From an uncultured delta proteobacterium (GTDB lineage: Bacteria > Myxococcota_A > Polyangia > Polyangiales > B10-G4), in the NCBI GenBank assembly GCA_963727445.1, contig CAVSGI010000015.1, positions 384,001 to 448,000 of the forward strand: 64,000 nt of DNA, read 5' to 3'. Under the pieces are notes generated by a model. It ran no database searches. It saw only the letters and a program-made list of their open reading frames with translations, and had not been told where the DNA came from. This document shows, one piece after another, positions 18,707 to 21,492 of this stretch (position 1 is its first letter; every line of letters begins with the position of its first letter). Position numbers and translations under genes: made by a program.

Positions 18707-19501
18707 TCAGCGGCGGCGTCGGGAGGCCGAGGACGTCGTGTCGACCGGCTGCTGTCGCGGTGGTGGTGTGACCGGGGTCTCGCGCGGCGGCGTGGTGTGG
18801 ACGGGCTCGGGGGTCTCCTCGAGGGTCCCAGGGCCAGTGGACGTGGTCGTCATGGCGGGCGTGGTCGTCATGGCGGGCGTGGTCGTCGTGGTGGACCTGG
18901 TCGTCGTGGTGGACATCGTCGTTCGGCGTCGTCTCGGTCTCGGCGTCTCGGCGGGTGGTGGGCCGGTGGCCGGCGGCCCGGCGTCGGGCGGGCCGGCATC
19001 GACGGCGCCCTCGTCCGGCTCCCACTGCTCACCCCGCATACGCGCCTCGTGCTCGGCCTCCGAAATGGGCTGACCGTTCCACGTGGCCGGCAGCCATGCC
19101 CGGGTGGTGTGGCAGTCCCCGCAGGTGAGCGGGAAGGTGAGGTGGTCCGGGAAGGTGTCGTCGTCGTAGGTGTCGCGGTGACAGTCGACGCACGCGCCCC
19201 CCATCCCCTCGAACACCGGCGGGTCGTCATCGTGACAATCGAAGCATTCGACGTGTGCGTGCGCGCCGGTCAGCGGCCACTCGTGCTCGACCACCCGCCG
19301 CGGCCTCCACCTCTCGGTGGTGTGGCACACCGCGCATGTCGTCGGCTTCTCCCCCACGTGATGTCGCGCCCCCTGGTACTCCTCGAGATGGCACGACGCG
19401 CATCGCGCCGAGCCCGCGTCGGGCGAGGCCTCACCACCGTCCGCGCAGCCGAGGAGCGAAAGGCAGAGGAGCCACGAGCCGATGGCGCGCGCGGCGCGCA
19501 T
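18707..19501 (-). CDS. Pentaheme c-type cytochrome lipoprotein with Pro/Thr-rich tail
   Basis: Lipobox LLGC; five CxxCH (CASCH, CAVCH, CFDCH, CVDCH, CGDCH) with intervening His (WPLTGAH, PDH); ATG overlaps the NOX stop (TGATG). Confidence 0.85.
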   Translation of the reverse strand: MRAARAIGSWLLCLSLLGCADGGEASPDAGSARCASCHLEEYQGARHHVGEKPTTCAVCHTTERWRPRRVVEHEWPLTGAHAHVECFDCHDDDPPVFEGMGGACVDCHRDTYDDDTFPDHLTFPLTCGDCHTTRAWLPATWNGQPISEAEHEARMRGEQWEPDEGAVDAGPPDAGPPATGPPPAETPRPRRRRTTMSTTTTRSTTTTTPAMTTTPAMTTTSTGPGTLEETPEPVHTTPPRETPVTPPPRQQPVDTTSSASRRRR

Positions 19502-21492
19502 CAGAACACCTCCTCACGAAACGGCATGCCGAGCGACTCGCATGCACGCCGGACCTTCGCGCCGAGCCCCGGCGGGCCACAGAAGTAGACGGAGACCTTT
19601 TCGCCGCGGTGCGCCTTCTTGATCGCGGCGAGCTCCTTCTTCCAGCTCGGCGCGCTCATGCGCGTCTTGGCCCGAAGGCCGGTCGCGAGGTCCGTCCGGC
19701 CGTATGCGTGTGCGAGCTCGCGCGCAGCTTCGAGCCCGAACGCCGTCGCACCCGTGCGCCCGCCGGTCATGTGGAGGTGGAGCTCGAGCACGTCGCGCGC
19801 GTCGCGTCTCTCGACTTCGGCGAGCAGATCCCGGAACCATTCGAAAGAGCGCTGATCCCGGTTGAGCCAGAAGAAGTGCGCCTTGTCGAGGTTGGGACCG
19901 CTTCCATCCTCGCGCGAGACGATGCTCTCGAGCACGCTGGCGAAAGGCGTGACGCCGATGCCCGCGCCGATGAGCACAGCGACGCGCGACTGGAAGATGT
20001 GGGCGCTCGGTGAGCCGTAAGGCCCGTCGAGAAACACGAAGAGGTCGTCCGGCGCCTCCCCGCTTCGCGCCTCCGCCAGGCTTCGGAGAGCCTCCGTCCA
20101 GTTGCCGAGCGAGCGCACGTGGAGGGTGATGGTGTCGCGCTCGGGCGCGCTGCTGATCGTGAACGGGTGCCACTCGTGCTTTGCCACGGCGGGGATGCGC
20201 ACGAAGACGTAGTCCGCGGGCGAGAACGAAAAGCCGAGGGGCCGCTCGATCTCCACCCGCGTGACTCCGGACTTCAGCGGCTCGATCGCGAGGATGCGTG
20301 CGCGCCGACCACGCCGGAGCGCGCGAAAGAGCTGCTCGACGCCGAAACCGAGCAGAGGCAGCCCCAGCCACAAGAGGACGTGCGGCGCGTGAATGACGAG
20401 GAGAACGAGCAGCGGCGCATAGAGCAGGTGCGTGAAGTAGAAGATCTCGAAGCGCCGCGAGCGCCGGAAGAAGCCGAGAGCGGCGATCCACATCACGACG
20501 AAGATCACGACGAGCAACGAGCCCGTGAGCCCCGTCTTCGTCTCGAAGAGCGCATGGGTGATCGGCTCGTCGTGCCCCGCGGAGTAACTCGCGACGAAAG
20601 CGCCCACGTGAGCCAGGCTCCCGAAGAAGAACGTGTGCCCCACGACCTTGTGGAAGGCGACCGCGGAGTCGATCGGGATGAGGCGCCCGAGAAAGCTGGC
20701 GCGCAGCCGCGTGAGAAACCGGCGCGCCACGGGCACGAGCACCACACCCGCGTCGAAGGCGAGCGCTGCCCCGGTGGCGCGCCCGACGCGCATCATCACG
20801 TGCTCCCCCAGGACCATGTTGTACGTCGCGACGAAGAGCCCGACGTTCATCAGCGCGAAGGCGGCGAGCACGATGCCGCCCCGCACGTGGTTTTCGACGA
20901 AGCGCGCGAACGCGTTCGGCTCGGGCTCGCCACCCGTCTCGTCGGTCAGGCGTGCGACCACGTCGCGACCCGGGGCCATCCACAGAGCCTCGGCGCGTGC
21001 CATCTCGTGAAGGAGCTCCGGGCGCGCACGAACGAGTCGCTCGAGCTCCGCGAAGGAGACGCGCCCGTCGCGGTCGGCGTCGAGCGCCTGGAGCAACCCG
21101 AGCGCGAGCGTCTCGGGCGAGTGCTCCTCGTCCGGCTCGATGTCGTCCTCGGCGAGGCCGATGGCGATCATCCGCTCGAGCTCCGTCTGCGACAGATATC
21201 CGTCGCCGTCGTGGTCATGCAGACGAAACGCGAAGGTGAGGCGGTCGTTGTCGGTGCCGTAGACGAGCTTGCGCACACCTTCCATGAACTCCGCGCGGCT
21301 GACGGATCCGTCCGCGTCGGTGTCCAGCTGCGCGAGCATGCGCTGGGCCAGGTACTCGCTCTTCAGCCCGAGCGCTTCCTTGAGCGATTCGACGTCGATG
21401 TGCGGCGCGTCCCCGGCGATCTGATCGAATCGGTGCTGGAGCAGATCGAGGGTCTGGGCCCCGGGCTTTGCGCGACGCGGCGAGTCGGTCAT
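19501..21492 (-). CDS. EF-hand NADPH oxidase (NOX5-type flavocytochrome)
   Basis: Three canonical EF loops (DTDADGSVSRAE, DHDGDGYLSQTE, DADRDGRVSFAE) plus a degenerate first one; ferric-reductase TM domain with His pairs spaced 14 and 13; HEWHPFTISS, DGPYG, GAGIGVTPF, YFCGP, terminal E-x-F. Confidence 0.9.
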   Translation of the reverse strand: MTDSPRRAKPGAQTLDLLQHRFDQIAGDAPHIDVESLKEALGLKSEYLAQRMLAQLDTDADGSVSRAEFMEGVRKLVYGTDNDRLTFAFRLHDHDGDGYLSQTELERMIAIGLAEDDIEPDEEHSPETLALGLLQALDADRDGRVSFAELERLVRARPELLHEMARAEALWMAPGRDVVARLTDETGGEPEPNAFARFVENHVRGGIVLAAFALMNVGLFVATYNMVLGEHVMMRVGRATGAALAFDAGVVLVPVARRFLTRLRASFLGRLIPIDSAVAFHKVVGHTFFFGSLAHVGAFVASYSAGHDEPITHALFETKTGLTGSLLVVIFVVMWIAALGFFRRSRRFEIFYFTHLLYAPLLVLLVIHAPHVLLWLGLPLLGFGVEQLFRALRRGRRARILAIEPLKSGVTRVEIERPLGFSFSPADYVFVRIPAVAKHEWHPFTISSAPERDTITLHVRSLGNWTEALRSLAEARSGEAPDDLFVFLDGPYGSPSAHIFQSRVAVLIGAGIGVTPFASVLESIVSREDGSGPNLDKAHFFWLNRDQRSFEWFRDLLAEVERRDARDVLELHLHMTGGRTGATAFGLEAARELAHAYGRTDLATGLRAKTRMSAPSWKKELAAIKKAHRGEKVSVYFCGPPGLGAKVRRACESLGMPFREEVF

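Follow-up and report, generated by a model that had tools for sequence, protein, structure and literature searches.

A NOX5-descended flavocytochrome translationally coupled to a pentaheme cytochrome c lipoprotein in Polyangiales: a candidate Ca2+-regulated NADPH:cytochrome c reductase

The window analysed here is a 64-kb stretch of DNA from a genome of the Polyangiales (Myxococcota), an order of predatory bacteria of soil and water. Its minus strand carries two overlapping genes, one for a NOX5-like flavocytochrome b and one for a pentaheme cytochrome c lipoprotein. The pair is a real and conserved NOX5-descended system that fails one signature of the NADPH oxidases (NOX). Judged from sequence, with a probability of roughly 0.6, it is an NADPH:cytochrome c reductase of two subunits that is under Ca2+ regulation; the coupled NOX5 relative probably passes electrons to the cytochrome and not to O2.

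The flavocytochrome gene (P0001) runs from 21492 to 19501 and encodes 663 amino acids ending in REEVF. Its EF-hands, Ferric_reduct, FAD_binding_8, and NAD_binding_6 domains all score above the Pfam cut-off, and human NOX5 is its best sequence match in the PDB (E=1.6e-106). The AlphaFold2 (AF2) model of its transmembrane (TM) domain, with a predicted local distance difference test score (pLDDT) of 92.7, best matches csNOX5 (5o0t; TM-score 0.85, root-mean-square deviation 1.9). The full NOX5 architecture claimed for this protein in the initial annotation is thus borne out by the translation, the Pfam and PDB matches, and the model. The second gene (P0002; 19501-18707) encodes a lipoprotein of 264 amino acids with the lipobox LLGC19, five CxxCH motifs, and a Pro/Thr-rich tail, and it matches Pfam Cytochrome_C7 at 29.6 bits (cut-off 24.8). 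In six frames, the whole window has seven CxxCH motifs, five of them inside this gene, and the genome has cytochrome c assembly proteins (3 matches). The overlap of the NOX TGA with the ATG of a five-CxxCH lipoprotein that the initial annotation describes is also found, as TGATG at 19503-19499. Together with GAGGAGGT, a Shine-Dalgarno-like sequence within the final NOX codons (19515-19508) and 6 nt upstream of the cytochrome ATG, it forms a translational-coupling junction (19499-19515).

P0001 was searched for in 401 genomes of the order and 401 genomes of the phylum. It has matches in 69 of the 401 Polyangiales genomes and in 7 of the 401 in the phylum set, where only 2 lie outside the order and neither is coupled. 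After repeats and one locus of identical sequence (L017, the same as L033) were dropped, 81 NOX5 loci remained, and 4 of them end too early to decide coupling. A gene with CxxCH motifs lies directly downstream on the same strand in 50 of the 77 decidable loci, and 27 are without it. Order and strand are kept in these 50 loci, and chance adjacency of the two genes is rejected on this basis. The coupled loci span 7 family codes and comprise 36 five-heme forms, 12 eight-heme forms, and 2 that are cut by a contig end. Among 49 coupled junctions (L056 was excluded because of a frameshift), 26 are TGATG, 15 have an ATG or GTG within 12 nt, and 8 are of other kinds. The survey of gene neighbourhoods for multiheme partners, set beforehand as a test, therefore finds the pairing conserved. 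Clustering of 41 coupled neighbourhoods, each reaching ~8 kb to either side (40 and the window, some clipped by contig ends), revealed no third recurring gene, an acceptor included, small generic families aside. Frameshifts or a stop interrupt the NOX frames of L007, L009, L056, L067, L072, and L084, mostly in few-contig assemblies, and these breaks are probably sequencing errors. In L003 and L004, which belong to one genus, a two-CxxCH lipoprotein gene directly follows the pair, and the C-terminal part of its product presumably resembles rhodanese.

The O2 pocket of csNOX5 consists of Arg256, His313, and His317, and its R256S and H317R variants are reported to be at least fivefold slower (PMC8129163). 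The NOX2 residue His119 is described as part of the signature that separates NOX from metal reductases (PMC3591440). In P0001, alignment to 5o0t puts Phe299 (20596-20598) at this position (csNOX5 H317, NOX2 H119), so the name 'NADPH oxidase' given earlier is not established. The residue alignment covers 69 intact NOX5 proteins, 44 coupled and 25 uncoupled. The O2-site His is found in 0/44 coupled versus 18/25 uncoupled proteins; Gly306-His307 (20572-20577), at the periplasmic end of TM3, is present in 44/44 coupled proteins, and His307 in 0/25 uncoupled ones. His307 is invariant although the surrounding loop is variable. The four heme b ligands, H281 (20650-20652), H295 (20608-20610), H355 (20428-20430), and H368 (20389-20391), are invariant in 69/69. 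Because TM3 ends at Gly306 in the AF2 model, His307 would lie on the periplasmic face. It follows the outer-heme ligand His295 of the same helix by 12 residues, or ~18 Å as estimated from helix rise. A further residue of TM3 between the heme ligands, His286 (20635-20637 in window coordinates), is His in 40/44 coupled versus 6/25 uncoupled proteins and may tune the inner heme.

Twelve loci with broken or cut frames lay outside this alignment, and TM3 is readable in 8 of them: 4 coupled and 3 undecidable loci have Gly-His without His299, and 1 uncoupled locus has neither. A metagenome scan gave 76 loci, 52 of which were scored once repeats and undecidable rows had been removed; at least 4 rows of this set come from genomes that the counts above already include, and a distant protein accounts for one uncoupled row. 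The coupled metagenome loci have His307 in 35/35 (34 Gly-His, 1 Ala-His) and His299 in 0/35, and the uncoupled ones have His307 in 0/17 and His299 in 12/17. The 119 top database homologues comprise 114 with Gly-His and no His299, 2 with neither, and 3 outside the pattern.

On the side of the cytochrome, all five CxxCH motifs (C34, C56, C86, C104, and C127; with the spare His at 19094-19402) are invariant in 48 full cores. The spare His are in column in 46/48 (H48), 48/48 (H73), 48/48 (H81), and 41/48 (H120) of these cores, and the assignment of each His to a heme is a putative one. Since there are five hemes but four conserved spare His, one heme is without an in-chain sixth ligand, and in P0002 the stretch from the lipid Cys to heme 1 contains no His. 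The family also occurs away from NOX5. The PF14522 profile (cytochrome c7-related) matches 42/42 members at E<=0.001, with P0002 over the cut-off, and a profile search finds the cytochrome module in 109 of the 401 genomes of the order. For comparison, 20 of the best non-NOX loci and two of the window's own genome were taken, and most of these NOX-free loci lie in a porin-like/cytochrome cluster that is described below. A His lies between the lipid Cys and heme 1 in 28/28 NOX-free members (24 at -8 to -11), against 13/50 coupled members with one before heme 1 (6 at -8 to -11). A quick cytochrome tree places the 48 coupled cores in a single group with a Shimodaira-Hasegawa-like approximate likelihood ratio test (SH-aLRT) value of 95, and this group includes the cluster cytochromes L094 and L096. 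These two are NOX-free and keep the His before heme 1, whereas it is absent from the coupled copies that their genomes also carry. The simplest reading is that His307 of the NOX took the place of a ligand that the cytochrome itself once supplied. That His307 now supplies the sixth ligand missing from heme 1 is accordingly a candidate role, for which the chance falls just short of even.

The mechanism proposed for the reductase has four steps. As homology to NOX5 suggests, cytosolic Ca2+ on EF2-4 would free the dehydrogenase domain. NADPH would then reduce FAD, and FAD would reduce the two b hemes across the inner membrane, which is the known course in the family and for which the motifs are present. 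Electrons would next go from the outer heme, where the O2 pocket is altered, to heme 1 of the cytochrome, a lipid-anchored protein that would dock at the periplasmic side. In the last and least known step, the five-heme chain would hold electrons and give them to soluble periplasmic redox proteins, and a tethered three-heme module would lengthen the chain in some members. A superoxide-generating, eukaryote-like NOX5 may in this way have been turned by a ligand swap into the membrane half of a Ca2+-gated wire: the O2-site His would have been lost and a periplasmic His completing heme 1 of a recruited lipoprotein gained, and the route NADPH > FAD > 2 heme b > 5-8 heme c would discharge into the periplasm as cytosolic Ca2+ rises. 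In this complete form the account is tentative and its odds are less than even. Outward electron flow costs NADPH and membrane potential, so a role in providing the envelope with reductant on demand is likelier than one in respiration. Searches of the genome return several matches to CCP_MauG and no clear one to NrfA, and neither result identifies an acceptor. Of the two-gene electron conduit put forward in the initial annotation, the conduit itself gains from the pairing conserved in 50/77 loci, the loss of the O2-site His, the gain of His307, and the missing in-chain ligand, whereas the word 'oxidase', a relay of reactive oxygen species (ROS) as the main output, and a link to reduction of metals at the outer membrane are not supported.

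NOX5 is defined by its N-terminal EF-hand domain, and two aspartates (human D638 and D658) are reported to matter for the contact between the EF-hand and dehydrogenase domains (PMC11088703). The EF-hand domain of P0001 covers residues 27-149 (21046-21414), with a non-canonical EF1 and canonical EF2-4. Among coupled proteins, EF2 is canonical in 43/43, EF3 in 42/43, and EF4 in 41/43; the corresponding counts for uncoupled proteins are 15/24, 21/24, and 16/24. The W-H-P and GxGxTP motifs, E661, and F663 are invariant in 44/44 coupled proteins. From these sequences, the coupled proteins likely bind Ca2+.

A number of observations, from single residues to the phylogeny, weigh against the reading as a Ca2+-regulated cytochrome reductase. 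In the regulatory segment of the dehydrogenase domain, D601 is retained in P0001 and invariant, but G581 stands at the other Asp position, which is Gly in 41/44 coupled proteins and Asp in 14/25 uncoupled ones. The Ca2+ gating claimed earlier is plausible, given the canonical EF2-4, but with one of the two aspartates mostly replaced by Gly the mode of gating may differ from that of NOX5. At the O2 site, Arg238 (20779-20781) is retained in P0001 and in 38/44 coupled proteins, TM4 Thr/Ser323 is present in 44/44, and Gly324 is invariant in 42/42. The H317R change slowed csNOX5, and O2 reduction was reportedly not abolished (PMC8129163). Dictyostelium NOXC is listed without the O2-site His (PMC3591440), and SpNOX, which is described as having neither the His nor the Arg, still consumes O2 (PMC11564096, PMC11031084). 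The claim of a cytochrome reductase is limited by the fact that NOXs without the O2-site His still reduce O2. The detail of the ligand swap is weakened by the cytochromes of L038, L067, and L072, which are without the lipobox Cys and have a His at -9 to -11 although their NOX keeps His307. N-termini similar to those of this subgroup are seen in L170, L182, L183, and L190. The lipobox Cys column is Cys in 45/48 homologues, and at +2 after it, 1 of 47 cytochromes has Lys and 3 have Asp. Lys at +2 is reported to mark many inner-membrane lipoproteins of M. xanthus (PMC3222651). With Lys or Asp at +2 in only 4/47, the known signals for inner-membrane retention are mostly missing.

The NOX tree was built from the TM and dehydrogenase columns of 89 rows by quick IQ-TREE with a midpoint root, and the trait columns were kept in. 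The 44 coupled enzymes form one clade (SH-aLRT 87), with a single change on the tree, so the correlations between residues and coupling amount to one evolutionary event, and the contrasts show strict retention since a single origin. Together with 7 uncoupled enzymes, the coupled clade makes up a group with a value of 100 that is nested among His-retaining bacterial NOX5s, and FastTree agrees with the groupings (0.998 and 0.599). Of the 7 uncoupled sister enzymes, 6 are also without the O2-site His and have no cytochrome; loss of the His is thus not exclusive to coupled enzymes. A nearby cyanobacterial cluster that includes Cylindrospermum proteins is among the outer His-retaining branches.

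The uncoupled sister group (L046, L049, L058, L059, L060, L063, L064, and L009) has mostly Arg, Thr, or Ala at the O2-site position and no His307, and three of its members share their genome with a coupled pair, as second copies. In the His-less L063, another gene lies ~330-1280 bases past the NOX stop; its product presumably resembles an ApbE-type flavin transferase, hinting at a flavinylated acceptor in place of the cytochrome. At L050, a His-retaining NOX5 near the His-less clade has a lipoprotein gene with 10 CxxCH motifs directly upstream on the opposite strand, in head-to-head orientation, and this lipoprotein presumably resembles MtrC/OmcA. The window's own genome has a second NOX5 (L013; C9:351140-353098) with 37% identity, which is uncoupled. 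It keeps the O2-site His, has no cytochrome neighbour and a degenerate EF2, and offers a natural control.

Electrons may also reach the cytochrome and end on O2 (or NO, or peroxide) at a cytochrome heme away from the inner membrane, which would make the pair a relocated source of ROS for predation or signalling. This would suit the missing acceptor gene, since no dedicated one accompanies the pair, and the heme without an in-chain sixth ligand, which could be an open site, as well as the eight-heme forms, which carry three hemes on a long Pro-rich tether. However, by its position the invariant His307 could close such an open site, and no catalytic pocket is visible in the sequence. Moreover, bis-His c hemes are usually carriers, not O2 reductases, and a relocated ROS source is unlikely.

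The published mark of metal reductases, absence of His119 (PMC3591440), and the other setting of the cytochrome family, clusters that also contain a porin-like gene and cytochromes of 10-23 hemes, bring a Ca2+-regulated FRE-like metal reductase into consideration. In such an enzyme, either the metal ion, Fe(III) or Cu(II), would bind to His307, or the cytochrome would relay electrons to chelated metal for uptake or to extracellular minerals. However, no metal transporter or porin recurs beside the pair in the 41 neighbourhoods, a lone His would be a weak metal site, and the porin-like gene is found in 8/48 coupled genomes versus 66/401 overall. These last counts leave the earlier link to metal reduction at the outer membrane unsupported and also reject a dependence of the pair on the porin-like cluster. 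A metal reductase is thus quite unlikely.

A superoxide-producing NOX of the outer-sphere, SpNOX-like type may instead be co-expressed with a scavenger or sensor cytochrome that is reduced by superoxide and protects the producer. The retention of Arg238 (38/44) and of Thr/Ser-Gly (44/44) fits this, as does the O2 reduction by His-less NOXs, but it would leave unexplained why His307 is invariant, why none of the 44 enzymes has kept the O2-site His, and why the cytochrome has lost its own upstream His; this reading is improbable. It is very improbable that the two genes are co-regulated and their products do not interact, with the lipoprotein destined for the outer membrane or the matrix and the altered residues being marks of a single clade: the single origin of the coupled clade and the mostly absent inner-membrane sorting residues would agree with this, but order, strand, and overlap are kept over 7 families at ~50% identity in otherwise unrelated neighbourhoods, and His307 is invariant within a variable loop.

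Cyanobacterial NOX5s have been treated as a special case of very few sequences (PMC9421330), and NOX5s are common in Polyangiales (69/401 genomes), beyond these few described cases. The physiological acceptor of bacterial NOXs is described as unknown and possibly a protein (PMC11031084, PMC11564096, PMC5676040). The pair names a candidate partner for a bacterial NOX and two residues (299 and 307) to probe in vitro. If the reductase reading is true, it represents a route from a ROS generator to a protein reductase, and a way, rare in bacteria, of moving electrons across the membrane under a Ca2+ switch. No description of a NOX5 with a multiheme partner, or of myxobacterial NOX5s, was found in open-access full text, supplements aside.

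Among the other features of the pair, the six-helix ferric-reductase-type TM domain, placed by alignment and the AF2 model, lies at 20302-20913, and the dehydrogenase domain at 19504-20298 contains the WHPFT FAD motif, GxGxTP, CGP, and the terminal E-x-F. A match of P0001 to XopAW (59.7 bits, cut-off 120) is weak and due to the EF-hands alone. The signal peptide of P0002 extends to the lipobox Cys19 (19445-19447; whole segment 19445-19501). The Pro/Thr-rich linker and Ser/Arg C-terminal motif lie at 18710-19090, and eight-heme homologues have a three-heme module at the end of the Pro-rich linker. After the Pro/Thr linker, a C-terminal motif of the P-D-V/I/T-x-T-x-x-S-R type is found in 26/34 five-heme forms (window 18710-18760), and Ser/Arg endings in 36/46 coupled versus 4/28 cluster cytochromes. 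This motif is perhaps a docking site. As a general sorting signal it is unsupported, as a pattern search found no other credible protein of the genome carrying it. The heme-free AF2 model of the cytochrome is poor (pLDDT 66) and gave no Foldseek or VIA-align match, and a profile search of the PDB with the cytochrome returned weak multiheme matches only. The promoter and terminator scan gave nothing exceeding shuffles.

The cluster in which the cytochrome family otherwise occurs is conserved and is found in the window's own genome (L090:3648-12277; C10:1379647-1388276) and in L092-L111. It contains a membrane-anchored FAD/NAD(P) reductase with two 4Fe-4S clusters, a 285-aa membrane protein, and cytochromes of 20-23 hemes, 10 hemes, and, as a lipoprotein, 8-17 hemes. 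It also contains a 563-aa protein without a Pfam match, present in 66/401 genomes, for which 'porin-like' is an interpretation. The cluster is a candidate conduit of electrons from the cytosol to the surface. Very large cytochromes of the family, with 26-29 CxxCH, are found at L091:5751-9182 and in L105-L107.

The lipoproteins of this cluster have the same heme module and N-terminal lipid anchor as the coupled cytochromes, and the three-heme C-terminal module is common to them and the eight-heme coupled forms. In contrast, they have 8-29 hemes and an in-chain His before heme 1, and their neighbours are an FAD/Fe-S reductase, a membrane protein, and the porin-like gene, without NOX5. A porin-cytochrome conduit of the Mtr/Pcc type is not seen around the pair, as no outer-membrane barrel or further cytochromes recur in the 41 neighbourhoods. 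In NrfHA of Desulfovibrio vulgaris, an interface heme is ligated by the partner subunit, the distal ligand of the NrfH heme being reported as a lysine of NrfA (PMC8840924). This likeness is an analogy only; NrfHA is quinol-fed, the ligand is lysine, and the proteins are unrelated.

MsrPQ of E. coli resembles the proposed reductase in that the exposed outer heme of a ferric-reductase-domain membrane protein serves a dedicated periplasmic protein. MsrQ is reported to give electrons to periplasmic MsrP, and the outer hemes of csNOX5 and SpNOX are described as exposed, with other acceptors possible (PMC11031084). Unlike the coupled enzymes, MsrQ is fed by the quinone pool and has neither EF-hands nor a fused dehydrogenase, and its acceptor is a molybdoenzyme. 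Membership in the MsrQ/YedZ-STEAP group, in which the first heme His is Arg and no dehydrogenase of the ferredoxin-NADP+ reductase (FNR) type is fused, is ruled out by the invariant H281 and the fused dehydrogenase. SpNOX of Streptococcus pneumoniae is a bacterial NOX without the canonical O2-site residues that reduces cytochrome c directly and has a suspected protein acceptor; anaerobic cytochrome c reduction is reported at 124.7 per min versus 48 for O2 (PMC11564096; see PMC5676040). It differs in being constitutive, in having no EF-hands and no identified partner, and in belonging to a distant lineage. In overall build, the coupled enzymes resemble NOX5 itself (human 6sz5/8u7y; csNOX5 5o0t/5o0x), which has the EF-hand domain, the six-helix bis-heme and FAD/NADPH domains, and short periplasmic loops. 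The O2-site Arg, the Thr-Gly, and the terminal E-x-F are common to NOX5 and the coupled enzymes, whereas in the latter the O2-site His is replaced, His307 is new, one regulatory Asp is changed to Gly, and a multiheme cytochrome gene is coupled.

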